This document shows positions 5,491 through 30,866 of a DNA stretch of 64,000 nucleotides, piece by piece. The stretch covers positions 2,818 to 66,817 of the forward strand of contig JBDRIT010000251.1 of assembly GCA_043815665.1 (NCBI GenBank). Reading direction: 5' to 3'. This stretch comes from Pseudomonadota bacterium (GTDB lineage: Bacteria; Myxococcota_A; UBA9042; CAIXZC01). Positions within the stretch are counted from its first letter, which is position 1. Each line of letters starts with the position of its first letter. The notes beneath the pieces are model-generated. The model did no database searches. It worked only from the letters and a program-made list of their open reading frames with translations, and was not told the DNA's origin. The position numbers and the translations under genes were made by a program.

Positions 5491-5569
5491 GGGGCGGCCG
5501 CCATCCATTGGTGGCGTGCTGCCTGAGATGAACCGAGCGTGACTGGCTGCCCGCAACTGAGGTGTCGCC

Positions 5570-8500
5570 ATGATGAGATTCGGATACCGGCAAGGAGTTG
5601 CGGCCCTGGTCCTCCTCTGCGTGTTCGCCTCGTGCAGCCCTGACAAGGCCGACCGGGACCCTGGGACGGACGCGGATCGTGGGGATCTGCCGGGAGTCTT
5701 CGAGGTGGTCATCGGTGGCGACGGCGTTCCTGATCATGGGAGTTCGGACACCGGCGTAGTTCCTGGAATGGACACGCCGGGCTGGCCGGACGTTGCACCG
5801 GACTGCCAGGCCGGGGTTGGCGGCTTCGGGTGTCCGTGTGACACGGACGACGAGTGCATCCACGGCTTCTGCTTCGAGACGCCGGAGGGTGAGGTCTGCA
5901 GCCAGACCTGTCTGACCGAGTGCCCGGACGGGTGGACCTGTGAGCTGGTTTGTGCGGGGGAGAGCTGCCAGTACGTCTGTGTGCCGCGGTTCCCCAGGCT
6001 CTGCCGGCCCTGCGCGTCCCATGAGGACTGCCAGGACGTCCTCGGAGGGGGGGACGACCTCTGTGTCTCTGCCGGATCGATGGACGCCGGCTCGTTCTGC
6101 GGTGGGGGATGCGACGGCGATGGGGGCTGCCCGGCCGGGTTCGTCTGCGTCCCGATCGGTGTGGATGCGGCGACTGGACAGTGCATCCTGGAGGCGGGGG
6201 AGTGCGGATGCACGGACTGGTACGCGGAGCAGGAGATCTGGACCCCATGCTCGAAGGAGAACGAGTGGGGAACCTGTGACGGTGTGCGGACCTGCGGCCC
6301 GGAGGGCCTGACCCCCTGTGACGCGCCCGCGCCGGTCGCGGAGGTGTGCAACCTGACGGACGACGACTGCAACGGCGCTGTGGACGACATTGCGGCGCAG
6401 ACCTGTGTGCTCGAGAACGAGTACGGCGGCACCGAGGGGCAGCTCGTCTGCATCGACGGCGAGGCGGTCTGCCTGCCGGACGAGGTCCCGGCCGCAGAGG
6501 TTTGCGACGGCCTGGACAACGACCTGGACGGAGCGACGGACGAGGGCTTCCCGGACACGGACGGCGACGAGGACGCGGACTGCGTGGACGGGGATGACGA
6601 CGACGACGGGATCACTGACGGGGAGGACGTCTGTCCCCTCCTGTCGAATCCTGACCAGGCGGACAACGACCTGGATACCTGGGGCGACGCGTGCGATCCG
6701 GACGACGACAACGACGGCATCGAAGACGGCGAGGACTGCGCACCGTTTCTCCCCTGGATCTACCCAGGCGCGATCGAGGTCTGCGACGGGTGGGACAACG
6801 ACTGCGACGACAAGATCGACGAGGGCTTCTCCGACGCGGACGACGACGGAACCCCGGACTGCCTGGAGACCGACGATGACGACGACGGGGTTCCGGACGA
6901 TGTCGATAATTGCCCGATCGTGGCCAACCCCGGCCAGGAGAACCTGGACGGGGACCAGACCGGGGACGCATGTGATCCGGACGTGGACGGAGACGGCGTG
7001 ATCAACGAAGCGGACCTGTGTCCCACGCTGCCGAATCCGGACCAGGCGGACTTCCCGGACTCCGACGGGATCGGAAACGCATGTGATGACGATGACGACG
7101 GTGATGGCGTGACGGACGACGAGGACAACTGTCCCCTGGAGAGCAACCCCGGCCAGGGGGACATGGACGGGGACGGCCTCGGGGATGCCTGCGAGGCTGA
7201 CATGGACGGGGACGGGATCGCGGACGGCGCGGACAACTGCCCGGAGGTCCCGAACCCGACCCAGGTGGACGCGGATGGGGACTGGATCGGGGACGCGTGC
7301 GACGCGGACGCGGACAACGACGGGATCCCGGACGATGGGGACAACTGTCCCCTGGTGTTCAACCCTGGCCAGCTCAACAACGACACGGACCCCTGGGGGG
7401 ATGCTTGCGACGACGACGACGACGATGACGGCTACCCGGATCCCTTCGACAACTGCCCCCTGACGGACAACCCCCTCCAGACCAATATGGACAACGACGC
7501 CTGGGGCAACGCGTGTGACGATGACGACGACAACGACGGGGTGCCGGACGGGGAAGACAACTGTCCGTGGATCCCGAACCCGAACCAGGCGGACGCGAAC
7601 AACGACGGCACCGGGGACGCCTGCTCGGGAGACATGGACGGCGACGGCGTGCCCGACGGGCAGGACAACTGCTCGGACGTCCCGAACCCTGACCAGGCCG
7701 ATGCGGACGGCGATGTCCTCGGGGATGCGTGCGACAAGGACGACGACGACGATGGCGTCCCCGACACCGAAGACAACTGTCAGCTGGTCCCGAACGGGCC
7801 CGGCATCGCCCCCCCGCAGGGGGACCAGGGCGACACGGACGGGGACGGCCAGGGGGACGCGTGCGACGCGGATGACGACAACGACGGCGTCCTGGACGAG
7901 GTGGACAATTGCCCATTCGACGCCAACCCGGACCAGACCGATCTCGACGATGACCTGCTCGGAAACGCGTGCGACAAAGACGACGACAACGACGGGCTCA
8001 AGGACGGCGTAGACAACTGCCCCTTCGTGCCGAACCCCGGCCAGGAAGACGAGGACGGGGACGGCATCGGCGACGCGTGCGACGGGGACGCGGACGGCGA
8101 CGGGGTGCCGGACGAGTCTGACAACTGCTTGTGGGTCCCGAACCCCACCCAGGACAACAACGACGGTGACGGTGCCGGGGACGCGTGCGATGACGACGAC
8201 GACAACGACGGCGTCATCGCCGACGCGGACAACTGCCCCTTCGGGCCGAATCCCGGCCAGGAGAACTCGGACACGGACGGGATCGGCGACGCGTGCGACG
8301 ACGACCTGGACAACGACGGCGTGCCGGATGCCTCCGACAACTGCCCGTGGGTCGCGAATCCGCTCCAGGCTGACACGGACGGGGACGGCCTGGGGAACAC
8401 CTGCGACGATGACGACGATGGCGACCTGATCCCGGACGTGGTGGACAACTGCGTCCTCACCTTTAACCCATACCAGGAGGACGCGGACGGGGACGGAATC

Positions 8501-11095: not shown

Positions 11096-14000
11096 GTAAT
11101 ATAATACAAAAGACGCAGGGCGGCTCCGTCCAACGGTCGGTCTCCCGCGGGCTCGACCCCAAGTCGGCATCGCCCTGGCCTGGACAGCGACTCTTCGTTG
11201 CTTTGATGCTGCTGTCATGGGTTGGATGCATGAGGCCGATATCACCGGACAATGAGATCACCTCGGATTCAATTGGATTCGACACCATCCTTGAGGCTGG
11301 TATACCGGATTTCGCCATGCTTGATTGCGGGATTCCGGATGCCTATTCGGAGATGGAATTCCCAATCGATGCCCTGTCCGAGCACAACGAGGGACAGGAT
11401 TTCTTTGCAGCCGACGGTTTGCCTCTCGAGTGCCCGGGCGGCTTTCGCTGCCCCTGTGACGTCAATGATGAGTGCGACAGTGGATACTGTGTGGAAACAC
11501 CGGACGGGAAGCGCTGTACCCGGATCTGCATGGAGGGCTGTCCCCCGGCCCACCTCTGCATGACCGTGGAAGAAACCTGCCCGGACTGCGTGCAGATCTG
11601 TGTGCCCGCGTTTCCGGAGCTCTGCCGGCCCTGCTCCAATGACGCGGAGTGCGGGTCCATGATCCAGGACCTGGACAACCGGTGCCTCCCCCTCGGCGGG
11701 CCGGAACAGGGGAGCTTCTGCGGCGGGGACTGCTCCGGTGCAGCGACCTGCCCTGATGGCCACTCCTGCGTCGAGGTGGAGGCGCTGGCGGGGAACCTGG
11801 TGCAGCAATGCGTTCCTGACGATGCCACTTGCGAATGTACCGGAAAGTACATCGAGGAGGGCGCCTCGACCTCCTGCCAGCAGGTGAACGAGCACGGGGC
11901 CTGCCCGGGGCAGAGGGTGTGTGTAGCGGACGGCCTGAGCCCCTGCGACGCGCCCGCTGCCGAGGCCGAGATCTGCGACGCGTTCGACAACGACTGTTCG
12001 GGCGTCGTGGACGACGTCTCGCCGAAGGTGTGCGTCCTCGATAACGTCTACGGCGCCTGCGAAGGACACACCGAGTGCACCGGCGGTCAGGAGATCTGCG
12101 TCGGCAAGGTCCCGACCGGCGAAGCCTGCGATCTTCTGGACAACGACTGCGACGGCGAGACCGACGAGGTCTGCGCGGACCTGGACGGGGACGGCACGCC
12201 GGATCTCCTGGATCCGGATGACGACGGCGACGGGATCCCGGAGGACGGTGGCGGGAGCGGGATCGACGGTGACGCCCCCTGCGACGACGGCCAGACGGCA
12301 GGCTGCGACGACAACTGCCCCGTCACTCCGAACGACGGGCAGGTGGACACGGACGGGGACGGGTTCGGGAACGCGTGTGACGGCGACGACGACAACGACG
12401 GGGATCCGGACGAGAGCGATTGTGCCTCCTTGGTTTCGAGCATCAGCGTGAACGGCTTCGAGGTCTGTAACGGGATCGACGACGACTGTGACGGGAAGGC
12501 GGATGAGGGCTTCGTCGATACGGACGTGGACGGCGTCGCGGACTGTGTGGACGAGGATACGGACGGGGACGACGTCCTCGACGGCATGGACAACTGCGCG
12601 GCGGTGTCGAACAAGGGTCAGGAGGACTTCGACGGGGATGGGGAGGGGGACGCTTGCGACCCGGACGCGGACGGGGACTTCGTGCTTGATACCATTGACA
12701 ACTGCCTGTTCTTTCTCGCCAACGCGCAGACCGACACCGACGACGACGGCCAGGGCGATCCCTGCGATCCGGACGACGACGGGGACGATGTCATGGATGT
12801 CGAGGACAACTGTCCCCTTGAGGAGAACCCCGAACAGGCGGACGAGGACCTGGACGGGTACGGCGATGTCTGCGACTTCGATCTGGATGGCGATAACATC
12901 GTCAACGCGGCAGACAACTGTCCCGGGGATACCAATTGGGATCAGGCGGACTTCGACGAGGACGGCCTCGGGGATCCCTGCGACCCGGACGCGGACGGCG
13001 ACGGCGCGCTGGACGGAACGGACAACTGCCCGATGCTGCCGAACCCGGGCCAGGAGGACTTCGAAGGGGACGGCCTCGGTGACCCCTGCGACTCGGACGA
13101 CGACAATGACCTGATCCCGGACGTGGTGGACAACTGCGTCTACCAGATCAACCCAAAGCAGGTGGACTCGGACTTCGACAACGAGGGGGACGAGTGCGAC
13201 GCCGATGACGACAACGACGGCGTGCTTGACGGGTCGGACAACTGCCCGACGGTCCCGAACCCGGACCAGGCGAATGCGAACGGGACCGGCCCCGGGGATG
13301 CGTGCGAGGGGGACGCAGACGGGGACGGGCTCCCCTTCGAGGATGACAACTGCCCACTGGTCTTCAATCCGGGCCAGGAGGACCTGGACGGGGACTCGTC
13401 GGGAGACGCATGCGACCCGGACGATGACGGGGACGAGGTGGCGGACGTCCTCGACAACTGCCCCCATACGCCCAACGGCTATGGCTGGGGCGGGGACGGG
13501 CAGACCGACACGGACGGGGATGGGGACGGGGATGCGTGCGACGACGACGACGACGACGACGGCGTGTCCGATGAAGAGGACAACTGTCCCGCGGTCAAGA
13601 ACTCCGATCAGGAGGACAATGAAGGAGACGGCCTGGGGGACGCATGCGATCCCGACGACGACGATGACGGCGTCAAGGACAACGCGGACAATTGTCCGGT
13701 GACCGGGAACCCGAACCAGGAGGACGTCGACGGGGACGGCCTCGGAGACGCGTGTGAGGATGATCCGGATGGGGATGGCATCCCGAATGAGATGGACAAC
13801 TGTCCGGAGACCTGGAACCCGGACCAGACCAACACTGATCTCATCTGGGAGAACCAACCGGGGAGTGGTGTGGTGGCCGACGCCCTGGGGGACGCGTGCG
13901 ACCCGGACGATGACAACGACGGCTGGGGCGATTTCCAGGACAACTGCCCTGTGGTCCCGAACCCGGCTCAGCAGAACCAGGACCAGGACGGCCTGGGGGA

Positions 14001-15438
14001 CGCGTGCGACCCGGATGATGACAACGACGGGATCCCGGACGTGTCGGACGTCTGCGTATGGATCCCGGACCCGGAGCAGCAGGATCTCGACGGGGACGGT
14101 CTGGGGGATGCATGTGATCCGGACGACGACGACGACGGCTGGGGCGACCTCCAGGACAACTGCCCGTTCACGTGGAACCCGGAGCAGATTGACCTGGACG
14201 GCGATGGTACTGGCGATGCCTGCGAGTGGGATCCGGACAACGACGGTGTCGGCGGTGACGTGGACAACTGCCCCTTGACTCCGAACTCGGGGCAGAAGGA
14301 CACTGACGGCGACGGTGTTGGTGATGCCTGCCAGGAGGACGACGACGCGGACGGCCTCGCGGACGACGTTGACAACTGCCCCTTGGCCGAAAACCCGGAG
14401 CAGGACGATCTGGATGGCGACGGGCTCGGCGATCTCTGCGACATCGATCGCGACGGGGACGGCCTCTCGAATGATTTCGACAACTGTCCGGATCTCATCA
14501 ACGGGGAGCAGGCAGATACCGATAGCGACGGCTTCGGAAACATGTGTGACGCGGACGACGACGACGACGGGGTCGAGGATGCCGTGGACAATTGCCCTCT
14601 CGTGAAAAACTCCGACCAGGAGAACCTGGACGGCGATGCATTGGGGGATGCCTGCGATCCGGATGACGACGGGGACTCGATCCCGAGTTTGCTGGACAAC
14701 TGCCCCGACACCACGAACCCCGACCAGATGGACCTCGACGGCGATGGAGCAGGGGACCTCTGCGACGACGATGATGATGGAGATGGTTCAGAGGACGTAT
14801 CCGACAATTGCCCGACCACCCCGAACCCCGGGCAGGAGGACCTGGACGACGACGGGGCGGGGAACCACTGCGACGATGACGACGACGGGGACGGGGTCTC
14901 GGATCTCGTGGACAACTGTCCCTGGACGCCAGGCGCCGACCAGTCGGACCTGGACGGCGACGGGCTGGGAGATGCGTGCGACGCGGACGATGACAATGAC
15001 GGGTTCCCGGACGTTGAAGACAACTGCCCGGAGACGGCGAACTGGAGCCAGGGGGACCTGGACGGCGACGGAATGGGCGACGGATGCGATCCGGATGACG
15101 ACGGGGACGGTGACCCGGATGTGACAGACTGCATGCCGCAGGAGCCGACGGTCCATCACGACGCGGCCGAGGTGTGCAATGGGCAGGACGACGACTGCGA
15201 CCAGTTCATTGATGAGGCAGGAGCAGGCGGCTGCACGACTTGGTGGAAAGATATCGACGCGGATGGATATGGAGTTTCGGGTGACACGATGTGCCGCTGT
15301 TCCAAGTTCTTTCCCTACACAGCGACCCAAGACGGGGACTGCGACGACTTCGACCCCTGGATGCATCCGGGTGCACCTGAAGTCTGTGGCAACTTCAAAG
15401 ACGATGATTGTGACCAGTCCGCAGACGAGGGGTGTTGA
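11086..15438 (+). CDS. Giant lipoprotein paralog (~1450 aa): signal with lipobox, N-terminal Cys-rich module, TSP3 repeat array, MopE-like repeats.
   Basis: Start chosen at ATG 11086 (MPVSNIIQKTQ...RLFVALMLLSWVGC). This gives a charged n-region plus a hydrophobic core ending in Cys. It overlaps the stop of the previous gene by 10 nt, which suggests translational coupling. The long ORF technically opens at 11014. Alternative starts are GTG 11092 or ATG 11206. Same conserved N-module (GFRCPCDVNDECDSGYC...AFPELCRPC...). Confidence 0.75.
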   Translation: MPVSNIIQKTQGGSVQRSVSRGLDPKSASPWPGQRLFVALMLLSWVGCMRPISPDNEITSDSIGFDTILEAGIPDFAMLDCGIPDAYSEMEFPIDALSEHNEGQDFFAADGLPLECPGGFRCPCDVNDECDSGYCVETPDGKRCTRICMEGCPPAHLCMTVEETCPDCVQICVPAFPELCRPCSNDAECGSMIQDLDNRCLPLGGPEQGSFCGGDCSGAATCPDGHSCVEVEALAGNLVQQCVPDDATCECTGKYIEEGASTSCQQVNEHGACPGQRVCVADGLSPCDAPAAEAEICDAFDNDCSGVVDDVSPKVCVLDNVYGACEGHTECTGGQEICVGKVPTGEACDLLDNDCDGETDEVCADLDGDGTPDLLDPDDDGDGIPEDGGGSGIDGDAPCDDGQTAGCDDNCPVTPNDGQVDTDGDGFGNACDGDDDNDGDPDESDCASLVSSISVNGFEVCNGIDDDCDGKADEGFVDTDVDGVADCVDEDTDGDDVLDGMDNCAAVSNKGQEDFDGDGEGDACDPDADGDFVLDTIDNCLFFLANAQTDTDDDGQGDPCDPDDDGDDVMDVEDNCPLEENPEQADEDLDGYGDVCDFDLDGDNIVNAADNCPGDTNWDQADFDEDGLGDPCDPDADGDGALDGTDNCPMLPNPGQEDFEGDGLGDPCDSDDDNDLIPDVVDNCVYQINPKQVDSDFDNEGDECDADDDNDGVLDGSDNCPTVPNPDQANANGTGPGDACEGDADGDGLPFEDDNCPLVFNPGQEDLDGDSSGDACDPDDDGDEVADVLDNCPHTPNGYGWGGDGQTDTDGDGDGDACDDDDDDDGVSDEEDNCPAVKNSDQEDNEGDGLGDACDPDDDDDGVKDNADNCPVTGNPNQEDVDGDGLGDACEDDPDGDGIPNEMDNCPETWNPDQTNTDLIWENQPGSGVVADALGDACDPDDDNDGWGDFQDNCPVVPNPAQQNQDQDGLGDACDPDDDNDGIPDVSDVCVWIPDPEQQDLDGDGLGDACDPDDDDDGWGDLQDNCPFTWNPEQIDLDGDGTGDACEWDPDNDGVGGDVDNCPLTPNSGQKDTDGDGVGDACQEDDDADGLADDVDNCPLAENPEQDDLDGDGLGDLCDIDRDGDGLSNDFDNCPDLINGEQADTDSDGFGNMCDADDDDDGVEDAVDNCPLVKNSDQENLDGDALGDACDPDDDGDSIPSLLDNCPDTTNPDQMDLDGDGAGDLCDDDDDGDGSEDVSDNCPTTPNPGQEDLDDDGAGNHCDDDDDGDGVSDLVDNCPWTPGADQSDLDGDGLGDACDADDDNDGFPDVEDNCPETANWSQGDLDGDGMGDGCDPDDDGDGDPDVTDCMPQEPTVHHDAAEVCNGQDDDCDQFIDEAGAGGCTTWWKDIDADGYGVSGDTMCRCSKFFPYTATQDGDCDDFDPWMHPGAPEVCGNFKDDDCDQSADEGC
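12180..15110 (+). repeat. Intragenic TSP3 repeat array in gene 11086..15438.
   Basis: Same motif periodicity. Approximate boundaries. Confidence 0.75.
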
Positions 15439-17850: not shown

Positions 17851-20800
17851 GCCGCAGACGTTGTCCGTTCCGGTGCAGACGCCGTTCTGGCAGGTGTCGC
17901 CCATGGTGCAGGAGTCCCCGTCGTTGCAGGTCGTCCCGTTGACCTTGGGCTGGGGGATGCAGGCGTCCGCGTCGTCGTTGCAGAGGCCGTTGTTGCATGC
18001 GTCGACGACGCCGGTGCAGGGGTTCGCCCCCCCGCCGGTGCACCAGCCGCCGCCGTCGCAGGTGTCGTTCACGGAGCAGAACTGCCCGTCCTCGCAGGTG
18101 GTGCCCGCGGGCTTGAACTCGGAGTCGCAGGAGAACCCGTCGGGGTTGGACGCGCCCTCGGGGACGCAGATCCCGATGATGCACGCGGAGGAGAGCCACG
18201 AGCAGTCCGCCGGCTCCCCCGGCTCGCAGGACCCGTCGGTGCACTGGTCGCCGAAGGTGCAGCCGTTGTCGTCCGCGTTGCAGGGGGTGCCGTTGGCCAC
18301 GGGGTCCCCCTCGCACTGGTCGGTGGCCTCGTTGCAGACCCCCTCGATGCAGCCGCCGGAGACCTCCTGGCAGTCGATGGGGGCACCCCCGACGCAGGTG
18401 CCGCTGCTGTTGCAGGTGTCCCCGCCGGTGCAGAACTGGCCGTCCTGGCACGGGGTCCCCGCCTGGAGGGGCACCAGATCGCACTTGTAGGACTGGACGC
18501 CGGTGGAGGTGCAGACCGCGGAGTTGCAGTCATTGCCCTGGCCCGCGCAGTTGACCGGGATCCCGGCCACGCAGGCCCCGCCGACGCACTGATCACCTGT
18601 GGTGCAGCCGTTGTTGTCCGCGTTGCACGCGAAGCCGTTGTTCGCTGGCGTGGAGGAGCACTGGCCCGTCTGCAGGTTGCAGATGTCCTGGGTGCACTGG
18701 TTCCCGTCGTCGCAGTCCTCGTTGGAGAGGCAGCAGTTGGGGTTGCCCGAGCCCTCGCAGGTGCCGTCGACGCACGTGTCGTTCACGGTGCACTCGTTCC
18801 CGTCGTTGCAGGTGATCCCGTTGAGCGCGGTGTTGGCGCACTGGCCACCTGTGCAGGCGTCCGCGGTGCAGGGGTTGTCGTCGTCGCAGTCCGGCGCAGG
18901 GCCCGCCTGACAGGCCCCCGCGACGCAGGTGTCCCCGATGGTGCAGGGGTCGTCGTCGGTGCAGGGGCCGCCGACCGGGCTCCAGAGGCAGCCGGTGGCG
19001 GGAGCGCAGGTGTCCGAGGTGCAGGGGTTGCCATCGTTGCAGCTCTTCGGGCTTCCGGAGCAGGCCCCCGCTGTGCACGCGTCACCGTCCGTACAGGCGT
19101 TGCCGTCGTCGCAGGGGTTGGAGTTCAGCACGAACTTGCACCCGCTCAGCGGGTCGCAGGAGTCCGTGGTGCAGGGGTTGTAGTCGGTGCAGGTGAGCTG
19201 CCCCGTGCCTGCGCAGGAGCCCCCCTGACAGACGTCGCCGGTGGTGCAGGCATTGCCGTCGTTGCAGGGGGCCTGGTTGTAGGTGTACTTGCAGCCGTCA
19301 TTTTCATTGCAGAAGTCATTGGTGCAGGCGTTGAGGTCGTCGCACTCCAGGGTGCCCGTGCCCGCGCAGACACCGCTTGCGCAGTGGTCGCCGGTGGTGC
19401 AGGCGTTGCCGTCGTTGCAGGGGTTCTCGTTGTTGGTGAACTGACAGCCGACCGCGGGATCGCAGGAGTCGCTGGTGCAGGGGTTGTTGTCGTTGCAGGG
19501 CAAGGCCTGGCCGCCGACGCAGGCGCCGCCGTTGCAGGAGTCGCCGATGGTGCAGGCGTTGCCGTCGTCGCAGGGGTTGGCGTTGTAGTTGTGCTGGCAC
19601 TCGAGGGCGGGGTTGCAGACGTCGTCGGTGCAGGGGTTGCCGTCGGTGCAGTCCTTGCCCTGGCCGACGCATGCGCCGTCGACGCAGACGTCGTTCACCG
19701 TGCAGAGGTCCTCGTCGTCGCAGATCTCGCCCCCGTTCTTGGGCGCGACGCCGCAGGCTCCGGTGTCGGGGGTTGCAGGTGGCCTGCGCGCAGGTGGGGT
19801 CCGCATCCGGGGGCAGGTCGCAGTCGATGACCGACGCGGGATCCACCATGCACTTGTAGGGCAGGGAGATCTTGGAGCAGTAGAGGCTCCCGTTGCAGAC
19901 ATTGCCGTCGTCCAGGAGGAGGCAGTCCGTGTCCGCGTTGCAGTCACACGCGATGGCCTCGCCGCCGCAGACGCCGTTCCCACCGCAGATGTCGTTGATC
20001 GTGCAGGGGTTCCCGTCGTCGCAGGCCCCGGCGCCGTACGTGAAGGTGCAGCCCACCAGGGGATCACAGGAGTTGATGGTGCAGGGGTTCGCATCCTCGC
20101 AGTCGATGAACTCCCCGGTACACGCCCCGAACGCGCAGTGGTCGTTGGTCGTGCAGGGGTTGGCGTCGCTGCAGGGGGCGGCGTTGAAGACGTTCTGGCA
20201 GCCGAGGGCCGGATCGCAGACGTCATCGGTGCAGTAGTTGCCGTCGTCGCAGGAGCCCTCGTCCGTGGGGCCGTCGCAGTCGTTGTCCTTGCCGTCGCAG
20301 ATCTCCGCCGCGCCGGGGTGGATCGCTGCATCCAGGGGGGCGCAGTCCGCTGCATCGCCCACGCCGTCGTTGTCGTCATCGGGGTCGCACGCGTTGCCCT
20401 GGCCGTCCAGATCGGTGTCCAGGGTGTCCGGGTTGGCCATGAGGGGGCAGTTGTCCATGGCGTCGGGGATCCCGTCACCATCGTCGTCGTCGTCGATGCA
20501 GTCCCGCTGCCCGTCGTCGTCGGTGTCCGTGTAGCCCTCGTCGGTGAACCCGTTGCAGTTGTTGTCCTTGCCGTCGCAGATCTCGGGCTCCGGCGAGGCC
20601 CCCTGGCAGATCTCATCGCCGAGGGAGCAGGCCTTGGTGCCGGGGCAGGTCCCATACTCGCTGGTGACCAGGCACTCCGCTGCGGTGATGTCGTCGATCG
20701 CGCCGTTGCAGTCATCGTCCAGGCTGTTGCAGGTCTCTGTGGCCGGGCTCGGCGCGTCGCAGGCGGTGAGGCCCGTGGGGCCGCAGTAGCGCTCTCCGGC

Positions 20801-21493
20801 GCAGGTGCCGGCGTCGTTGGACTCCGCGCACTCCGTGGTGAGCTGCAGGAACTTGGAGAGCGCGGTGCACTGGCAGGCGCCCTCGGTCAGCCGGCACTGC
20901 TTGACGCTGGTGCCGTCCGGGGCCTCCGCGGTGACGCAGCCGTAGCCCGCGGGGCAGGTGTCGTCGCTGCAGTCGGCGCCGCAGAAGCTCCCGGCGTCTC
21001 CATAATCCAGGCAGAGGTCTACGCTCCCGCCCAGGATCGGCTGACACTCCGCGTGGTCCACGCAGGGCTGGCAGACCTTGTCGAACCGCGGCAGGCAGAG
21101 GTAGGTCACGTCCGGGGGCGTGGTGCTGACCGGCGCGCAGACGAAGTCGGCCGGGCACTCCTCCACGCAGGTCATGGTGCAGATCTTCTTCTCGCCGGTG
21201 AGGATGCAGTACCCGGAGTCACAGTCCTCCGGGTCGTCGCAGGGCCACCCGAATGCGCCGGGCTGGGGACCGCTGTCCCCGGCTCCGTCCGCGTACTGGT
21301 CCGGCTGGGCGTCGCCGGCGGGAGCGTCCGGCTCGCCGGCGTCATTGCCGATGATCGTGTCGCCGGTCGTGTCCTCCGGAGTCTCCGGGGTGTCCGTGGA
21401 GACCTTGCCCGCGCCGGTGCCGCACGCGGCCACGAGCAGGGCCGCCGCGGCCAGGGCGATGACGAGGGCGATGCGATTGAGATTCCGCAGCAT
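15460..21493 (-). CDS. Giant lipoprotein paralog (~2010 aa if read through) interrupted by a 1-nt frameshift near 19768..19772. Order of parts: lipoprotein signal, conserved N-module, a few TSP3 repeats, MopE-like motif, ~40 CxxCxxDxC-type Cys-rich repeats, then ~13 tandem ~55-aa repeats of unknown function.
   Basis: Two overlapping minus-strand ORFs (19316..21493 and 15460..20715) each contain sensible protein on one side and R/T/P-rich nonsense on the other. The sense portions join exactly at the G5 homopolymer (plus strand 19768-19772; C5 on the coding strand). Removing one base gives ...DPTCAQATCNPDTGACGVAPKNGGEICDDEDLC..., which is in register with the repeat motif. N-terminus MLRNLNRIALVIALAAAALLVAACG is a lipoprotein signal. 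Confidence 0.75.
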
Positions 21494-21530
21494 GGAGTCC
21501 TCCCGACAGGTGTCCGGTTTCTCGAGGCTG

Positions 21531-21570
21531 GTTGATTATAGAGAGATGGAACCTCTGGTTCCAGCGAAAC
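21531..21570 (-). promoter_or_regulatory. Candidate promoter/operator upstream of the frameshifted giant gene: perfect TATAAT (minus strand) and a 6-3-6 palindrome GGAACCtctGGTTCC immediately upstream.
   Basis: Minus-strand reading …cTGGAACcagagGTTCCatctctcTATAATcaacc… About 45 nt before the ATG, with GGGAGGA as SD. The -35 match is weak. Confidence 0.3.
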
Positions 21571-23550: not shown

Positions 23551-24870
23551 CTACAGGTACTGCTTGATCTCCCAGTCCGTCACGTGCTGACGGAAGGAGG
23601 CCCACTCCTCCTTCTTGATGCCGACGTACTTGGCCACCAGCTCCTGGCCGAGGACCTCGCGCAGGAAGGACGACTCCTCCACCGCCAGGATCGCGGAATC
23701 CATGTCGTCGGGGAGGCAGCGATAGCCCTTGGCCTCGCGCTCCACGGGGGTGAGGAGGTCCGTGTTCTCCTTGAACTCCGGCGGGGCGACCAGGCCCCGC
23801 TCGATGCCGTCGAGCCCCGACGCGAGCTGGAGCCCCACCAGCAGGTAGGGGTTGGCCATGGGGTCCGCCGCCCGGTACTCGAAGCGGCAGCGATGGGGCT
23901 GGTCCGGGGCGAACGCGGGGACCCGGATCAGCGCCAGGCGGTTCTGGATTCCCCAGGTCAGGAACGCGGGGGCCTCGTGGCCCGGTACGAGGCGCTTGTA
24001 GGAGTTCACGGTCTGGTTCGTGAAGAGGGTGATCTCCTGCGCGTGATCCAGGAGCCCGGCGATGTACTGCATCCCGGTCTCCGAGATGAGGTTCCGCGTG
24101 GTGCGGCCGTAGTCGTAGAACGCGTTCTCGTCGCCCCTCCACAGGATCTGGTGGACGTGGAGGCCCGAGCCGATGAGGTCGCTCATGGGCTTGGGCATGA
24201 AGGACGCGTGCATGCCGTGCTTCTGGGCGACGGTATCCACGAGGACCTTGGACAGGAGGAGGTTGTCGCATTGCCGGAGGGCGTCCTCCAGGCGGAACTC
24301 GATCTCGTGCTGGCCGGGGCCGTTCTCGTGGTGGAAGACCCGGATCCCCATGCCCACGTCCTCGAGGAGCTCCGCGGTCTCCTGGAGGGCCCGGGTGCTC
24401 GGGTCGGCCCTTGGGGCCTCGAAGTAGCCGCCTTGATCGGTGGGATTCGGGGCCGTGCGATCCTTGAAGTAGTAGTACTCCAGCTCCGTGAGGATGTCGA
24501 AGCGGGTGAAGCCCATCCCGCGGGACGTCTCGACGGTGCGGCGCAGGAAGGACCGGGAGTCCAGCGCCTGGCCGGAGCCGTCGGGCCGATGCACGTCGCA
24601 GAACAGGATCGCCGCGGCTGGGATCCCGGCGCCCCCCTGGACGATCCGGAAGCTGTCCAGGTCGGGCATCGCAGCGAGGTCGGAGCGATCCACCCGGGAC
24701 ATGCCTGCGACGGAGGAGCCGTCCAGGGGCGCGCCGTTGTCCAGGACGCGGTCCAGGCCGGACGCGGGGACGTGGGTCACCCGCGGCCGCCCGAAGAGGT
24801 CGATGAGCCAGAACTGGATTGTCCGCAGCCCGTGATCCTTGATGGCTTTGGCGATGTCCTTGCGATCCAT
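23551..24870 (-). CDS. Glutamine synthetase family protein (type I-like gamma-glutamyl:amine ligase, 439 aa).
   Basis: N-terminal GS beta-grasp region (MDRKDIAKAIKDHGLRTIQFWLIDLFGRPR) and a GS catalytic domain are recognisable by eye. The size fits GlnA / GlnT / PuuA-like enzymes; the exact substrate cannot be assigned from sequence. Confidence 0.8.
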   Translation of the reverse strand: MDRKDIAKAIKDHGLRTIQFWLIDLFGRPRVTHVPASGLDRVLDNGAPLDGSSVAGMSRVDRSDLAAMPDLDSFRIVQGGAGIPAAAILFCDVHRPDGSGQALDSRSFLRRTVETSRGMGFTRFDILTELEYYYFKDRTAPNPTDQGGYFEAPRADPSTRALQETAELLEDVGMGIRVFHHENGPGQHEIEFRLEDALRQCDNLLLSKVLVDTVAQKHGMHASFMPKPMSDLIGSGLHVHQILWRGDENAFYDYGRTTRNLISETGMQYIAGLLDHAQEITLFTNQTVNSYKRLVPGHEAPAFLTWGIQNRLALIRVPAFAPDQPHRCRFEYRAADPMANPYLLVGLQLASGLDGIERGLVAPPEFKENTDLLTPVEREAKGYRCLPDDMDSAILAVEESSFLREVLGQELVAKYVGIKKEEWASFRQHVTDWEIKQYL

Positions 24871-25061
24871 GGTGCCTCCCGCCCCGCCCCGCCCGAGCCG
24901 GGTGGTGTCGGCCAGAGTGGATCGGGGGGGGGCGTGATGTCAAGCACGCGCGGGGGCGGACCGAGCGCAAACTCAGGGTGATGACGTGGGGCGAGCGCGA
25001 TGTGCACGGATGTCTCCGGCTCTGGTACAATCCCTGGGACTTGTCCTCGCAGAGGTGCCAC

Positions 25062-28046
25062 GTGAGAGATCTTGCTATACTCCTTCTCATCCTCTCCTTC
25101 GCTGCCTGCAACGATGCCGCCACCGACGGCGGCGACGCCTCCGGCGGGCTTGACCTTCCGAACGTCGAGGACACGGGCGGGGTGGACTTCACCTTCGTCG
25201 ATCTCACCTCCGACGGCGTCACGCCGGACCTGCCCCCTCCGGACGGGACCATCGACGACATCGTGTCGGTCTGCGAGCCCGGGGAGGGCTGCTTCCTCGA
25301 CCCCTGCGTCGAGAACGGGGAGTGCCAGTCCGGGTGGTGCGTGGACCACATGGGGGACGGGGTCTGCACGACCGCGTGCGCCGAGGAATGTCCCGCCGGC
25401 TGGTCCTGTCAGCAGGTCGCCGGCACGGATCCGGACGTGGTCTTCATCTGCGTGTCCCATATCGCCAACCTCTGCCGTCCCTGCGCGGACGCGGGGGACT
25501 GTCTGGCCACTGGTGGCGTGGAGGACGTCTGCGTCGACTACGCGGCCGAGGGCAGCTTCTGCGGGGCGCCCTGCGATCCCGACGACGTCAAGTCCACCTG
25601 CCCCTGGGGCTTCTCCTGCCAGGAGGCCCTCACCGTGGACGGCATCCCCACGACCCAGTGCGTGGCGGACGCGGGGATCTGCCCCTGCACGGCCAAGGCC
25701 GTCACCCTGGCCCTGTGGACCCCCTGCGCGGTGGAGAACGAGTGGGGCCAATGCGGAGGAAAGCGGGTCTGCACCGGGGAGGGCCTCACCCCCTGCGACG
25801 CGACGGACCCCGCTGCGGAGCTCTGCAACGCCCTCGATGACGACTGCGACGGGGAGGTGGACGAACCCAACGTGATCGACGGCGGGTACCAGGACCTCTG
25901 CGACGACGGCAACGGGTGCACCGAGGATGGCTGCGACGGCGCCGCTGGATGCACCCACGCGGCCCTCACCGGGGGGGAGTGCGTGGACGGCGACGTGTGC
26001 ACCGTCGGGGATCACTGCGAGGCGGGGATCTGCCTGGGCTCGCCGGTGGCCTGCGACGACGGCAACCCCTGCACCGATGACCAGTGCGACGGGCTCGGAG
26101 GCTGTGTCTTCCTGGCCAACGACGTGGCCTGCAACGACGGCGATTCCTGTACCGTCGCCGACCAGTGCGACGAGGCGGTCTGCGCCGGCGTCCCGGTGAG
26201 CTGCGATTGCCAGGCTGATGCGGACTGCGCCGGGCTCGAGGACGGAGATCTCTGCAACGGCACCCTGGTCTGCGACACCGGGGCGCTCCCCTTCCAGTGC
26301 GAGGTGGCTCCCGACACCGTGGTGACCTGCCCCGCTCCGCCCCCGGGGCCGGGGCAGACCTGCCTGGCGGCGGCCTGCGACCCGGAGGACGGGACCTGCG
26401 GGCTGGTCCCCGCCAGCGAGGGGTTCCTCTGTGACGACGGGGATCCCTGCACCGTGGGTGAGGCTTGCGTCGAGGGGGCCTGCGCCGACGGGGTGGCGCC
26501 CAACTGCAATGACGGCAACCCCTGCACCGACGACGGGTGCGCGGCCCCCGGGGGGTGCGTCCACGTCCCCAACGACCTGCCGTGCAGTGACGGCGACGTC
26601 TGCACCCTCGATGATCACTGCTCAGATGGACTGTGCGTCGGCGGGTCCATGTTGGGTTGCGACGACGGCGATCCGTGCACCGTGGACCTCTGCGATGTCG
26701 CGGTGGGGTGCCAGCACGAGCCCTCGGATGGCGACCTGTGCAACGACGGCAACGCCTGCACAATCGGGGATCACTGCGTCGCGGGAGCCTGCGTCTTCGG
26801 CCTCGTGGCGGTGTGCGACGACGGGAACCTCTGCACCACCGACAGCTGCAGTCCCCAGACGGGGTGCGTCTACACCTTGAACACCGCTCCCTGTGACGAC
26901 GGTGACCTCTGTACCGTCGGGGATCACTGTCATCTCGGCGGATGCATCGCGAGCGGTGCGCTGAGCTGTGATGACGGCAACGTCTGCACCGACGACGCCT
27001 GCCTCGCCGCGACGGGCTGTGCCTTCTCACCCAACGCTGCGGCCTGTGACGACGGCGATCCCTGCACCCAGGGGGACCACTGCGCCGGCGGCTGGTGCCT
27101 GTCCACCACCAAGGACTGCGACGACGACAACCCCTGCACCGACGACGCCTGCGGCTCCGCCGGATGCACCAACACCCCCAACGCGGACCCCTGCCCCGGC
27201 GGCCTCTGCGCGGGGGGCGTCTGTGTCTGCCAGCCGGCCTGCGCCGGGAAGGACTGCGGGGACGACGGCTGCGGCGGGTCCTGCGGCGTCTGCACGGGGC
27301 AGGATCTCTGCCTGGCGGGCCACTGCCAGTGCCAGCCGGCCTGCGACGGCAAGAACTGCGGAGGCGACGGCTGCGGCGGGTCCTGCGGCGTCTGCACGGG
27401 TCAGGACCTCTGCGTGGTGGGTCTCTGCCAGTGCCAGCCGGATTGCCTCGGGCTCGACTGCGGGGAGGACGGCTGCGGTGGCCTCTGCGGTACCTGCCAG
27501 GGCGGCGACACGTGCGTGGCCGGAGCCTGCGTCGGGGCCATCGGGAAGCGGGTCTTCGTGACGAGCACCCTGACCTCAGCGGGCCTGGGCGGGGTCTCAG
27601 GTGCGGACTCCTATTGCCAGTCACGGGCTGGCGCCGCGGGGCTCGGCGGCTCCTGGCGGGCCTGGGTGAGCCTCTCCGGAAGCCCGGTCACGAGCCGGTT
27701 CAACCACGCGTCCGTGCCCTACAAGCTCCTGGACGGCGCAGTGATCGCGAGCAACTGGGCCGACCTCACCGACGGGACCCTCCAGCACGCCATCGACCGG
27801 GACGAGAACGGCGGCGCCGTGGGCTCGGGATACATCTGGACCGCGACCAAGCCCAACGGATCCTACAACTCCGACAGCTGGGGCGGCTGCGGTGGCACCC
27901 TGTGCGGCGGCTGGACCATCGGCGGGACCTGCAACTCCGGGAGCGGCGGCTTCGGCGGTGACTCCGGTAAGGTCGACGCCCAGTGGACCGACACGGTGTG
28001 CGGCTGCTGCAACAACCAGTGGCGTCTCTACTGCTTCGAACAATAG
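25062..28046 (+). CDS. Cys-rich lipoprotein paralog (~995 aa). Order of parts: lipoprotein signal, conserved N-module, ~25 CxxCxxDxC-type repeats, three CxPxCxGKxCGxDGCGGxCGxC modules, C-terminal endostatin-like / DUF1554-like domain.
   Basis: GTG 25062 gives VRDLAILLLILSFAAC (lipobox), preceded by AGAGG. The long ORF's ATG at 24978 would add 28 non-signal residues. The C-terminus reads KRVFVTS...GADSYCQSRAGAAGLGGSWRAWVS...PYKLLDGAVIASNWADL...YCFEQ. This matches the endostatin (collagen XVIII NC1) signature [24 protein letters not shown]...IVNLKDELLFPSWEAL. Confidence 0.8.
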   Translation: MRDLAILLLILSFAACNDAATDGGDASGGLDLPNVEDTGGVDFTFVDLTSDGVTPDLPPPDGTIDDIVSVCEPGEGCFLDPCVENGECQSGWCVDHMGDGVCTTACAEECPAGWSCQQVAGTDPDVVFICVSHIANLCRPCADAGDCLATGGVEDVCVDYAAEGSFCGAPCDPDDVKSTCPWGFSCQEALTVDGIPTTQCVADAGICPCTAKAVTLALWTPCAVENEWGQCGGKRVCTGEGLTPCDATDPAAELCNALDDDCDGEVDEPNVIDGGYQDLCDDGNGCTEDGCDGAAGCTHAALTGGECVDGDVCTVGDHCEAGICLGSPVACDDGNPCTDDQCDGLGGCVFLANDVACNDGDSCTVADQCDEAVCAGVPVSCDCQADADCAGLEDGDLCNGTLVCDTGALPFQCEVAPDTVVTCPAPPPGPGQTCLAAACDPEDGTCGLVPASEGFLCDDGDPCTVGEACVEGACADGVAPNCNDGNPCTDDGCAAPGGCVHVPNDLPCSDGDVCTLDDHCSDGLCVGGSMLGCDDGDPCTVDLCDVAVGCQHEPSDGDLCNDGNACTIGDHCVAGACVFGLVAVCDDGNLCTTDSCSPQTGCVYTLNTAPCDDGDLCTVGDHCHLGGCIASGALSCDDGNVCTDDACLAATGCAFSPNAAACDDGDPCTQGDHCAGGWCLSTTKDCDDDNPCTDDACGSAGCTNTPNADPCPGGLCAGGVCVCQPACAGKDCGDDGCGGSCGVCTGQDLCLAGHCQCQPACDGKNCGGDGCGGSCGVCTGQDLCVVGLCQCQPDCLGLDCGEDGCGGLCGTCQGGDTCVAGACVGAIGKRVFVTSTLTSAGLGGVSGADSYCQSRAGAAGLGGSWRAWVSLSGSPVTSRFNHASVPYKLLDGAVIASNWADLTDGTLQHAIDRDENGGAVGSGYIWTATKPNGSYNSDSWGGCGGTLCGGWTIGGTCNSGSGGFGGDSGKVDAQWTDTVCGCCNNQWRLYCFEQ

Positions 28047-28140
28047 GCCCCGACCCCGACCCTGACCTTGACAACGCACCCACGCTGGACAAGGATCGCC
28101 GGGAGCGTTTTTCTAACGCCTCGCCGCACGGGAGCAGGGG

Positions 28141-29520
28141 ATGCCTACGGTCCGAGAGCTCAACGGAAAACGGGTCCACTTCCTCGGCATCGGGGGCATC
28201 GGGGTCAGCGCGCTCGCGCGGCTCCTCATGGCTCGTGGGGTCGCTGTGTCCGGGTCCGACGTTCGCCCCTCGAGCATCACCGAGGCCCTGACAGAAGAAG
28301 GCGCCCGGGTCTTCATCGGCCACCGCGTGGAGAACCTCGACGGCGCGGACATGGTGGTGCACTCCACCGCGATCCCTGCGGACAACCGGGAGCTGGCCGG
28401 CGCGCGGGCCCTGGGCCTGCCGGTCCTGCACCGCAGCGAGCTCCTCGGCGCGCTGGTGGGTGCGTTCACCAGCATCGGCGTCACGGGCACCAACGGCAAG
28501 GGCACCGTCTCGTCCATGATCACCTGGATCCTGGAGACAGCGGGCTGGGAGCCCTCCTTCTATATCGGCGCGCATTGCGAGAACCTGGGCACCAACGCCC
28601 GGCACGCGGGGGACCGATGGTTCGTTGCGGAGCTGGACGAGAGCGACGGGTCCCTGGTCAACACCGCGCCCATGTACGCGGTCCTCAACAACCTGGAGAT
28701 GGACCACCTCAACTACTACCGGGACTTCGACCATGTCGTAGAGGTCCTGGGGACCTTCTTCGCACAGCTCCCCGAGGGGGCGATGGGCTTCTTCAACGCG
28801 GACTGCGAGGGCGCCCGCATGGTGGCCCGGAACGCTTCACTGCGGCGGATCCTCTTCGGCGAGGCGGCGGACGCGGACGTGCGCCTGATGGACGCGGACG
28901 TCGGCCCCGAGGGCTCCGTGTTCTCCGTCGCGCTGGCCGACGGGCCCGTGGAGCGCTTCACCCTGTCCATCCCCGGACGCTACAACGTCGAGAACGCCGT
29001 CGGTGCGGTCGCCGTGACCCAGGCCCTGGGCGTCCCCATCGAGGCGATCCGGGAGGGCCTCTCCAGCTACCGGGGCATGGCCAACCGGTACACCGTCCTC
29101 CGGGCCGGCGCGCACCAGGTGATCAAGGACTACATCTCCCACCCGACGGGGATCCGCAAGGTGCTGGACACCGCGCGGCTCTCCGCGCAGGGGCGGGTCC
29201 GGGCGGTGTTCAAGCCGTACCGGTACACGATGATCAACTACCACGCGGAGAACTACCGTGATGCGTTCACCGCCGCGGACGAGGTGATCCTCACGGAGAT
29301 GTGGGAGGCCAACGAGGAGCCGATCCCCGGTGTCTCCACCCCCTGGCTCGCAGAGGTCCTGCGCGCCGGAGGTCAGGCGGTGGAGTACGTGCCGGAGATG
29401 GAGGGCATCGTCCCCTACCTGGAGCGCAGCCTCGGCCCCGCGGAGACCGTGATCTTCTTCGGGGGCGACGACCTCTTCGCGCTCGCCGACGACTTCGCCG
29501 GGAGAATCACCGAACGATGA
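28141..29520 (+). CDS. murC: UDP-N-acetylmuramate--L-alanine ligase (Mur ligase family; an Mpl-type paralog is not excluded).
   Basis: N-terminal Rossmann motif HFLGIGGIGVSALA, P-loop GVTGTNGKGT, and overall MurC architecture (459 aa). Confidence 0.85.
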   Translation: MPTVRELNGKRVHFLGIGGIGVSALARLLMARGVAVSGSDVRPSSITEALTEEGARVFIGHRVENLDGADMVVHSTAIPADNRELAGARALGLPVLHRSELLGALVGAFTSIGVTGTNGKGTVSSMITWILETAGWEPSFYIGAHCENLGTNARHAGDRWFVAELDESDGSLVNTAPMYAVLNNLEMDHLNYYRDFDHVVEVLGTFFAQLPEGAMGFFNADCEGARMVARNASLRRILFGEAADADVRLMDADVGPEGSVFSVALADGPVERFTLSIPGRYNVENAVGAVAVTQALGVPIEAIREGLSSYRGMANRYTVLRAGAHQVIKDYISHPTGIRKVLDTARLSAQGRVRAVFKPYRYTMINYHAENYRDAFTAADEVILTEMWEANEEPIPGVSTPWLAEVLRAGGQAVEYVPEMEGIVPYLERSLGPAETVIFFGGDDLFALADDFAGRITER

Positions 29521-30866
29521 ACCGACACGAACTGAAGGGCGCCCGGATCTCGGTCCTGGGCATCGCCCGTAGCGGCCTCGCCGCGGCCAATTGGCTCGCT
29601 GCGGCGGGTGCGGATGTGCTGGCCTCGGATCTGCGCCCCTCGGAGAAGTGGCCCGAAGGCCTCGACCCCCGGGTCGCCGTGGCGGACGGCCGCAACGAGG
29701 TCCGCGAGGGGGATCTCGTCATCATCAGCCCGGGGATCCGCCCCGGGAGCCCGACCTTCGACCTGGCCCACGCCCGGGGGCGGGAGGTCTGGAGCGACAT
29801 CGAGCTCTTCGGCCGCTTCTGCCCCGCCCCGGTGGTTGTGATCACCGGCACCGACGGCAAGAGCACGACGACGGCGATGATCGAGGCGGTCTTCAGGGCC
29901 TGCGGTCGTCCCCCCGTGGTCGGCGGCAACATCGGAATCGGCGCGATGGGGATCCTGGACGCCGTCGACCCGGACGGGGTCGCGATCCTGGAGGTGAGCT
30001 GCTTCCAGCTCGTCCACACCCTGACCCTCCGTCCCCGGGTTGCGGTCCTCACCAACATCGCCGAAGACCACGTGGACTACCACGGCAGCTTCGACGCCTA
30101 CGTGGCCGCGAAGCGCAGGGTGCTCCAGTCCATGGGGGACGGCGACGCGGTGGTGCTCAACCGGGAGGATCCGATCCTGTCGACCTGGGACCTGCCTGCG
30201 GGGATCCGCCGGATGACCTTCGGCTTCGCCCGCCCCGGGACCACCCGGGACGCCGCCTGGGTCGAGGACGGGAGCATCTTCTGCGACCTCGGGGACGGCC
30301 CCGAGGCCTTGATGCGCACGAGAGACCTCCGGGTGGTGGGGGGACACAACGTCCTCAACGCGATGGCCGCGACCCTCACCGGCGCGGCCATGGGAGTCGA
30401 ACGCCGCCGGGCGACGGAGGCCCTCGCGAGCTTCCCCGGTCTCGAGCACCGCATGGAGTTCGTGGACGAGGTGAACTCCGTGCGGTGGTTCAACGACACC
30501 AAGGCCACGAACCCCCACGCGGCCGGTGCGGTCCTCGAGGCCCTGGACGGCCCCGTGGTCCTTATTGCGGGGGGCTCCGAGAAGGACAGCGACTTCGCGG
30601 AGCTCGGCCGCCTCATCGCGGCGCGTACTCGCGCGGTGGTGCTCAACGGGGAGACCCGGCACCGCATGGCCGCGGCGATCCCGCCGGGTCACCCCGTGGT
30701 GGTGGTGGGGGGGTTGGAGGAGGCGGTCCGCAGGGCCGCGGACCTCGCGGAGGCCGGAGACATGGTCGTCCTCGCCCCCGCATGCGCCAGCTTCGATCAG
30801 TTCAGCGATTTCGAGCACCGCGGGCGCGAGTTCAAGCGGATGGTCCGTGCGCTCCGGGGCGGTTGA
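29517..30866 (+). CDS. murD: UDP-N-acetylmuramoylalanine--D-glutamate ligase.
   Basis: MNRHELKGARISVLGIARSGLAAANWL... plus ITGTDGKSTTT P-loop and a MurD-like C-terminus. The start overlaps the murC stop in an ATGA arrangement. The first 72 codons of the reported ORF are upstream read-through. Confidence 0.85.
   Translation: MNRHELKGARISVLGIARSGLAAANWLAAAGADVLASDLRPSEKWPEGLDPRVAVADGRNEVREGDLVIISPGIRPGSPTFDLAHARGREVWSDIELFGRFCPAPVVVITGTDGKSTTTAMIEAVFRACGRPPVVGGNIGIGAMGILDAVDPDGVAILEVSCFQLVHTLTLRPRVAVLTNIAEDHVDYHGSFDAYVAAKRRVLQSMGDGDAVVLNREDPILSTWDLPAGIRRMTFGFARPGTTRDAAWVEDGSIFCDLGDGPEALMRTRDLRVVGGHNVLNAMAATLTGAAMGVERRRATEALASFPGLEHRMEFVDEVNSVRWFNDTKATNPHAAGAVLEALDGPVVLIAGGSEKDSDFAELGRLIAARTRAVVLNGETRHRMAAAIPPGHPVVVVGGLEEAVRRAADLAEAGDMVVLAPACASFDQFSDFEHRGREFKRMVRALRGG

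Follow-up and report, generated by a model that had tools for sequence, protein, structure and literature searches.

The 64,000-nucleotide stretch of contig JBDRIT010000251.1 considered here (the window, taken at its full length) contains, at 25062..28046 of the forward strand, a gene for a cysteine-rich bacterial lipoprotein whose last module is almost certainly a true homologue of animal endostatin and has the endostatin fold. This C-terminal domain belongs with DUF1554, the type of domain known from the Len lipoproteins of Leptospira, and caps a long stalk rich in cysteine. The presence of a C-terminal endostatin-like domain, first noticed in a sequence-only reading of this DNA, is a correct observation and a fairly ordinary one, the family being already known and very large. 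Taken as a whole, the protein is probably, with considerable room for doubt, a lipid-anchored stalk adhesin that carries an endostatin-fold binding head. Here, we describe the homology and fold of the domain, its conserved and absent sites, the gene, family, and locus to which it belongs, and the roles that may be proposed for it.

Homology and Fold of the C-Terminal Domain

The homology to endostatin is established by four independent lines of evidence, namely a single-sequence search, a family profile, an hhalign comparison, and structure prediction combined with structure comparison. The cysteine numbering used below (C30, C126, C161, and C169) refers to the 172-amino-acid (aa) C-terminal segment of the protein. 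A phmmer search with the single sequence against all PDB entries placed endostatins on top, with expectation values (E) of 5.8e-6 for 1koe, 7.8e-6 for 1dy0, and 2.2e-4 for 1bnl. A family profile constructed from an alignment of 56 metagenomic homologues gave four PDB matches at E<1, all of them over the full domain and with E values of 1.8e-14 to 7.6e-12, and all four are endostatin domains of collagen XVIII or XV. The significant match to 1dy0 (E 1.8e-14) covers residues 22-181 of that chain. Alignment with human endostatin by hhalign reached a probability of 97.4% and an E value of 1.4e-11 over 146 columns. The human sequence used there agrees with the 1bnl segment in the phmmer alignment.

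The AlphaFold2 model of the domain has a predicted local distance difference test score (pLDDT) of 94.3 and a predicted template modelling score of 0.91. In a Foldseek comparison of this model with solved structures, the top five matches are the endostatins 1dy1, 1koe, 1dy0, 1bnl, and 1dy2, with template modelling (TM) scores of 0.74-0.77, E values of 3e-10 to 3e-8, and sequence identities of 20-25%. The matches that follow them are C-type lectins with E>=0.37 and TM scores of 0.2-0.33. Every one of these methods thus agrees with the endostatin-like domain of the sequence-only reading, and the C-terminal position given there is likewise borne out, since the stop codon stands directly after the final CFEQ. 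The result that would have spoken against that reading, a lack of any significant profile match, is contradicted by the family profile. The peptide quoted in that reading is present in the translation, although the start that it gave, 27530, lies 1-2 nt out of frame, the in-frame codons being 27528 and 27531.

Conserved Cysteines and Absent Ligand Sites

The cysteines C30, C126, C161, and C169 are invariant across the 56-sequence alignment and occupy the same columns as the four cysteines of endostatin, as expected from the two conserved cysteine pairs that had been reported for the domain. In endostatin these residues form two nested disulfides, Cys33-Cys173 and Cys135-Cys165. By homology, the sequence of the lipoprotein is consistent with a nested arrangement in which the first cysteine would pair with the fourth and the second with the third. 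Four additional cysteines, C121, C135, C158, and C160, are specific to a subclade, being common to P0001, L001, and L002 and partly to L003, and are located in a Gly-rich insertion at 27879..28019 (+). These extra residues probably add two disulfides in the subclade. The model is least confident in this insertion, with a pLDDT of 82-86 over residues 111-140 of the segment.

The ligand sites of endostatin have fared differently from its scaffold. The zinc ligands of endostatin are His1, His3, His11, and Asp76. This site is not kept in the lipoprotein domain, where the hhalign alignment places R8 opposite H11 and G70 opposite D76. H1 and H3 have no counterpart at all, the equivalent segment being the end of the preceding Cys repeat, which contains no His. 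The heparin-binding arginines are mostly replaced as well (R24 by G, R27 by S, R53 by S, R62 by S, and R139 by T), and among the arginines of the heparin patch only R47 and R63 retain basic counterparts. In keeping with the alignment, the domain is mildly acidic with an isoelectric point (pI) of 5.5, as against 9.3 for endostatin. Judged from the aligned residues, then, the scaffold of endostatin is conserved, and its known ligand sites are not. The resemblance to endostatin that the sequence-only reading had drawn consequently stands for the fold, the core motifs, and the cysteines, and falls away for the zinc site and the basic heparin-binding patch.

Pfam Membership and Earlier Knowledge of the Family

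Both Pfam families that were named for the domain match it below their curated thresholds. The Endostatin family (PF06482) scores 19.5 bits (E 8.2e-4) against a gathering threshold of 29.4, and its match is confined to residues 17-83, corresponding to profile positions 11-80 of 170. DUF1554 (PF07588) scores 18.2 bits (E 2.2e-3) against a threshold of 27.5, and its match covers profile positions 4-129 of 136. By Pfam's own rule the domain is therefore a member of neither family, and nothing relevant to it was found in NCBIfam.

The homologues place these scores in context. DUF1554 is matched by 50 of the 56 homologues (E<0.01) and Endostatin by 36 of them. Relatives that pass the DUF1554 threshold are 42-46% identical to the domain; they include the second domain of L005 (46% identical, E 3e-36, 42.6 bits), L012 (44%, 35.9 bits), and L014 (44%, 28.7 bits), and they uphold the assignment to a DUF1554 type. 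Other relatives fall just short of the Endostatin threshold, namely L039 with 28.7 bits and L005 with 28.0. Taken across the relatives, these scores indicate that the two Pfam families form a continuum that includes the domain described here, and that the Pfam thresholds miss the subclade to which it belongs.

Bacterial lipoproteins that carry an endostatin-like DUF1554 domain have been known since 2007-2008. The LenA-F lipoproteins of Leptospira were named 'endostatin-like' from PHYRE models with an estimated precision of 25-60%, they bind laminin, fibronectin, and factor H in vitro, and each Len motif is closed by CVEQ (Stevenson et al. 2007, PMC2063517). The explicit link between Len, DUF1554 (PF07588), and the PDB entry 1koe was also made (PMC2387172). 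Few publications mention DUF1554 and almost all of them concern Leptospira; in the searchable literature, we found no work on DUF1554 in Myxococcota. The lipoprotein is a divergent new member of the DUF1554/Len family with a distinctive long Cys-rich stalk.

The Lipoprotein Gene and Its Parts

The features of the gene and of its neighbourhood are collected in Table 1. Translation most probably begins at GTG 25062, which has a GAGG 6 nt upstream, and ends at a TAG at 28044..28046. The open reading frame (ORF) has a strong coding signature, with a G+C content at third codon positions (GC3) of 0.89 like that of the neighbouring genes. A promoter and terminator scan of 24700..28400 found nothing and is uninformative at 69% GC. 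The precursor begins with MRDLAILLLILSFAA followed by the cysteine that would be lipidated, Cys16 (codon at 25107..25109), in a lipobox of the form LSFAA-C. A lipobox stands at the equivalent place in both orthologues, reading ...FIVSLAAC in L001 and ...AAMMSTAC in L002, and with this conservation the earlier assignment as a bacterial lipoprotein holds as a prediction. The orthologues (59% identity for L001 and 51% for L002) align from the signal peptide onward over approximately 1,000 residues. The protein contains 129 Cys residues (13%) and 16% Gly, and the mature form has a pI of 4.05. The high cysteine content points to an oxidising compartment and hence supports export.

Table 1. Features of the lipoprotein gene and of the surrounding window
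Feature	Coordinates	Strand	Basis or remark
Window ORF as listed	24978..28046	+	1022 aa; longest start is GTG 24978
Lipoprotein gene, whole, with most probable start	25062..28046	+	994-aa precursor, 978-aa mature protein; start GTG 25062
Predicted lipoprotein signal peptide, MRDLAILLLILSFAA-C	25062..25109	+	Lipobox pattern
Acidic Gly/Asp/Pro-rich tether without Cys, aa 17-70	25110..25271	+	Direct sequence reading
N-terminal Cys-rich region, aa 71-279	25272..25898	+	Conserved in L001 and L002
Dicty_CTDC-type Cys-rich stalk, aa 280 to ~705	25899..27176	+	PF00526, E 5.5e-38, 8 stretches
Three tandem 34-aa repeats CQPxCxGxxCGxDGCGGxCGxCxGxDxCxxGxC	27228..27530	+	Regex coordinates
Endostatin-fold domain (DUF1554/Len-motif type), K829-Q994, ~166 aa	27546..28043	+	Ends ...WRLYCFEQ before stop
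Span of four family-invariant Cys codons	27615..28034	+	C30 27615-7, C126 27903-5, C161 28008-10, C169 28032-4
Giant ORFs, 1,477-1,845 aa, first cut by window edge	2..5311, 5561..11095, 11008..15438	+	Thrombospondin (TSP) type 3
739-aa ORF with MopE, Dicty_CTDC, and one TSP_3	19316..21535	-	Pfam motifs
murC-type ligase and murD-like Mur ligase	28141..30866	+	Directly downstream of lipoprotein gene, upstream of pheS/pheT
2,391-aa ORF with Big_13 Ig-like and FG-GAP repeats	48472..55647	-
1,464-aa ORF with C-terminal PPC (pre-peptidase C-terminal) domain	55951..60345	-

In the N-terminal Cys-rich region, the Pfam scan found no family apart from a weak MopE-like motif at its end (Cu-binding_MopE, E 0.0023, below threshold). 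The stalk that follows contains 14 CxD[GD][ND]xC motifs. The architecture of L001 is like that of the window protein, and Pfam finds 11 Dicty_CTDC stretches in it. The 34-aa unit with its CGxDGCGGxCGxC core has no Pfam match. At the DNA level it appears as a 102-bp tandem repeat at 27228..27478 (2.5 copies, 84% matches, Tandem Repeats Finder), a similarity that indicates a relatively recent intragenic duplication. No second copy of the endostatin-fold domain was detected in the 64-kb window by a six-frame hidden Markov model search.

Distribution and Architecture of the Family

The family is found well beyond the myxobacteria. An exhaustive profile search returned 24,452 cluster representatives from metagenomes at E<=1e-3, including 10,657 at E<=1e-30. 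A genome scan with the single lipoprotein sequence, which is biased to close relatives of this myxobacterial query, gave 79 loci in >10 phyla, many of them free-living. The closest loci belong to two uncultured Myxococcales metagenome-assembled genomes (MAGs), L001 and L002, with 76% and 66% identity. These two relatives, together with the flanking M3 peptidase and MurC at 85-87% identity, are the basis for assigning the window to an uncultured myxobacterium. Myxococcota, including Nannocystis, Enhygromyxa, and Haliangium, account for about half of the loci, and the others come from Micavibrio, Acidobacteriota, Patescibacteria, Chloroflexota, Bacteroidota, Gamma- and Zetaproteobacteria, Bradymonadales, and Planctomycetes.

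The terminal position of the domain is a pattern of the whole family. Within the 79 loci, 85 of the 100 complete domain copies end <=3 residues from the stop codon, and the endings follow the pattern C[FVI][EQ]Q-stop (CFQQ 39, CFEQ 34, CVQQ 10, CIEQ 5, and CVEQ 2). The modules that precede the domain are diverse and comprise Cys-rich repeats (L001, L002, L038, and L041), DUF4215 (L029, L034, and L039), nine MopE motifs (L058), a pilin N-methyl motif (L016), an Ig-like domain (L012), a Kelch propeller (L011), and a collagen triple helix (L059, L040, and Acidobacteriota). In minimal members of 160-290 aa, a signal peptide and a short linker are all that precedes the domain. At the other extreme, multi-copy giants are frequent, with up to 12 matched stretches per protein.

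Several arrangements in individual relatives were also observed. Predatory Micavibrio MAGs encode giants of 1,600-1,800 aa with 2-3 internal domains (L005:2240-7336 (+), and also L008, L010, and L017). The L005 giant combines two domain copies with a C-type lectin domain (Lectin_C) and a C-terminal Peptidase_S74 tail-fibre intramolecular chaperone, a composition suggestive of a trimeric fibre adhesin. In the Acidobacteriota loci L013, L019, L033, and L045, and likewise in L049-L051 (Nannocystaceae) and L027 (Gammaproteobacteria), 2-4 paralogous genes that each end in the domain follow one another in tandem; such arrays indicate local expansion and diversification of the gene family. Alternative anchors occur on the endostatin-like head as well: in P0073 the domain is followed by a PEP-CTERM-like tail, P0021 and P0031 carry a membrane or pilin-type segment (PF18895) at the N-terminus, and L016:2265-3797 carries a type IV pilin N-methylation motif.

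Locus Neighbourhood

The immediate neighbours of the lipoprotein gene are housekeeping genes (glnA-like, murC, murD-like, and pheS/pheT). The murC/murD-like pair is located outside a recognisable dcw cluster, and the adjacency of MurC is kept in L001. The flanks of L001 are those of the window, with an M3 peptidase of 85% identity and a MurC of 87% identity, and this synteny indicates that the lipoprotein gene is native to its lineage.

The thrombospondin-type repeats that had been noticed in sibling genes are indeed present, with 22-24 TSP type 3 repeats in each of the three giant ORFs at 2..15438 and one in the ORF at 19316..21535. Two of the three giant ORFs also contain MopE-type metal-binding motifs, 7 in number. 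At these ORFs, the AT skew of the + strand is strongly positive (up to +0.35), and beyond ~16 kb, in a part with genes on the - strand, it turns negative. The - strand ORF at 19316..21535 combines, on a smaller scale, the repeat types of the lipoprotein gene and of the giant TSP type 3 genes. Farther away, the ORFs at 48472..55647 and 55951..60345 probably encode secreted or surface proteins.

The description of this repertoire as strikingly metazoan and extracellular matrix (ECM)-like is an over-reading, as the modules TSP type 3, Dicty_CTDC, MopE, and DUF1554 are abundant in bacteria (24,452 representatives and >10 phyla for the endostatin-fold family). The repeat types of the neighbouring genes are common modules of bacterial secreted proteins, TSP type 3 being typical of myxobacteria, and the locus mirrors an abundance of Cys-rich and Ca-binding repeat proteins that is general in Myxococcota. 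Given these common modules and the housekeeping neighbours, the locus is not a dedicated island of ECM mimicry.

Proposed Role and Alternative Explanations

A model of the protein from this uncultured myxobacterium can be formulated as follows. The N-terminal lipid would anchor the protein in the membrane on the extracytoplasmic side, and the acidic tether together with a disulfide-rich stalk of ~750 residues, made of the Dicty_CTDC-type repeats and the three CGxDGCGGxCGxC repeats, would project the endostatin-fold domain away from the cell. The domain itself is a compact, C-type-lectin-related fold that the two nested disulfides would lock, and the DUF1554/Len domain shares its ancestry with the endostatin of animal collagens XV and XVIII. 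The domain would then most likely serve as a distal ligand-binding head, either an adhesin or a recognition module, because it is the last module behind any anchor or stalk and because endostatin and Len domains bind ligands. Its target would be an extracellular macromolecule, for instance a polysaccharide of the matrix, or else a protein or glycan carried by another cell or by prey. Unlike endostatin, the head would bind neither heparan sulfate nor zinc, and binding of a glycan through a non-canonical site would fall within the same view. Several points weigh against this model. Both Pfam families score the sequence under their curated thresholds. The binding role is an extrapolation that draws on the Leptospira Len proteins, on endostatin, and on the arrangement of domains. 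The list of taxa is biased toward relatives of the myxobacterial query, so that no preference of the family for predatory or epibiotic bacteria is established.

Five other explanations were weighed against the binding head. A chance or compositional resemblance might be suspected in a protein with 13% Cys and 16% Gly whose Pfam scores stay below threshold, but its probability is practically negligible, given a profile that matches endostatins exclusively (E 1e-14), the 97.4% of hhalign, a fold match with a TM score of about 0.75, and core residues that are invariant in the family alignment. That collagen XVIII endostatin was recently acquired from an animal by horizontal transfer is very hard to credit: the sole matching solved structures are endostatins, yet the identity to them is only 20-25%, the gene has a GC3 of 0.89 like its neighbours, syntenic orthologues exist (M3 peptidase and MurC 85-87% identical in L001), and the bacterial family, besides being very large, shows deep divergence among many phyla. 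Host-matrix mimicry by a virulence adhesin, as proposed for Len, would have the domain bind animal laminin, fibronectin, complement regulators, or plasminogen. The in vitro binding of laminin, fibronectin, and factor H by the DUF1554-bearing Len lipoproteins (PMC2063517) speaks for it, as does the terminal C[VF]EQ motif common to Len and the domain described here. This role is nonetheless improbable for a protein whose nearest relatives are environmental Myxococcales MAGs, whose family occurs in free-living Acidobacteriota, Chloroflexota, Patescibacteria, Zetaproteobacteria, and others (24,452 cluster representatives), whose C-terminal domain lacks the basic patch of endostatin, and whose neighbour genes are housekeeping genes (glnA-like, murC, and pheST).

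The relationship of the endostatin fold to the C-type lectin fold raises the question of a canonical Ca2+-dependent C-type lectin carbohydrate-recognition domain. Weak matches to C-type lectin-like domains follow the endostatins in Foldseek, and the Micavibrio relative has a true Lectin_C domain in the same protein. However, Pfam finds no Lectin_C (PF00059) match at E<=1 on the lipoprotein, and the best C-type lectin-like Foldseek match has an E value of 0.37 and a TM score of 0.31, which leaves this identification with a small likelihood. A comparably small one attaches to the proposal that the module is not a functional head at all and is instead a C-terminal secretion, sorting, or anchoring domain, like the C-terminal domain of type IX secretion system substrates, its terminal position reflecting a targeting role. 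Such a role would fit the position of 85 of 100 copies at the stop codon and the high diversity of the regions upstream of them. Against it, many members, of 160-290 aa, have nothing but a signal peptide and a short linker in front of the domain, the domain also occurs internally and in several copies (up to 12 matched stretches in one protein), it is present in phyla with unrelated secretion machineries, some members have a sorting tag of their own after it, such as the PEP-CTERM-like tail of P0073, and its homologues in endostatin and Len bind ligands. None of the five accounts for the data on distribution, composition, and architecture as well as the distal binding head does. With that assignment, a 994-aa 'hypothetical' Cys-rich lipoprotein gains a defensible annotation as a surface stalk with a DUF1554/endostatin-fold putative binding head.

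Collagen-Like Relatives and a Possible Origin of the Endostatin Module

Some relatives carry collagen repeats in front of the domain. In L059:2870-4477 (+), from an Oceanococcus sp. MAG, ~65 uninterrupted G-X-Y triplets (Pfam Collagen, E 1.9e-32) are followed by a Cys-containing linker, a Pro-rich hinge, and the endostatin-like head. In L040:3284-4498 (+), from a Zetaproteobacteria MAG, 41 G-X-Y triplets precede the domain. The tandem paralogues of Acidobacteriota (L013, L019, L033, L045, and L053) have 8-14 triplets and a two-Cys linker before it, and P0023 has short G-X-Y runs upstream. The module order of these collagen-repeat relatives is that of the C-terminal half of collagens XV/XVIII. 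The window protein has no G-X-Y run, its upstream part being made of Dicty_CTDC-type and CGxDGCGG repeats. In the searchable literature, no report was found of bacterial collagen repeats combined with an endostatin-like head.

These relatives allow a broader scenario, which we regard as tentative and rather unlikely. The endostatin fold would be primarily a bacterial invention, abundant as a C-terminal head on many stalks, and the multiplexin-like arrangement of collagen, hinge, and head would have pre-existed in bacteria. Animals would have obtained the NC1 module, possibly along with its collagen context, from bacteria, or the transfer would have run the other way; the bacterial heads would be trimeric recognition tips, and the window protein would be the myxobacterial variant on a disulfide-rich stalk. 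With the bacterial collagen-like proteins that bear endostatin-like heads, the question of where the multiplexin NC1 domain arose in evolution becomes testable.

Comparison with Known Systems

Bacillus BclA is a bacterial collagen-like protein with a globular, C1q-like C-terminal head. Proteins of the BclA type resemble the lipoprotein in combining a stalk with a C-terminal head that is similar to an animal collagen NC1-type head. In contrast to them, the lipoprotein lacks collagen repeats, its stalk is disulfide-rich, and trimerisation is not indicated.

The endostatin of collagens XVIII and XV (PF06482) is alike in its fold (TM 0.74-0.77), in its four cysteines in the same columns, in its place at the C-terminal end of a long extended protein, and in the core motifs GG..G.[GA]D..C, GL.G.[FW][RK]A[FW][LV]S, VP,.SW..L, and VW.[GA][ST]. 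It differs in sequence, the identity being 20-25%, and the bacterial domain is without the N-terminal zinc site and lacks most of the heparin arginines. Whereas endostatin follows a triple helix and a trimerisation domain, the bacterial domain follows a stalk of Cys-rich repeats and stops at CFEQ, with no counterpart to the additional tail at the C-terminus of endostatin.

The Len proteins (LenA-F) and DUF1554 likewise represent bacterial lipoproteins with an endostatin-like motif of ~160 aa that ends in C-V/F-E-Q, and intragenic duplication and paralogy occur in the family. The Len proteins, however, are small, have one or two motifs and a Pro-rich linker, come from a pathogen, and have been proposed to bind host ECM and complement. 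The window protein has a single motif that caps a Cys-rich stalk of ~750 aa in a free-living myxobacterium, and its subclade carries four extra cysteines in the Gly-rich insertion. The enormous size of the family among free-living bacteria, together with the absence of the zinc and heparin sites, argues that the 'endostatin-like' label on Len reflects the shared ancestry of a common bacterial surface module and not host mimicry.

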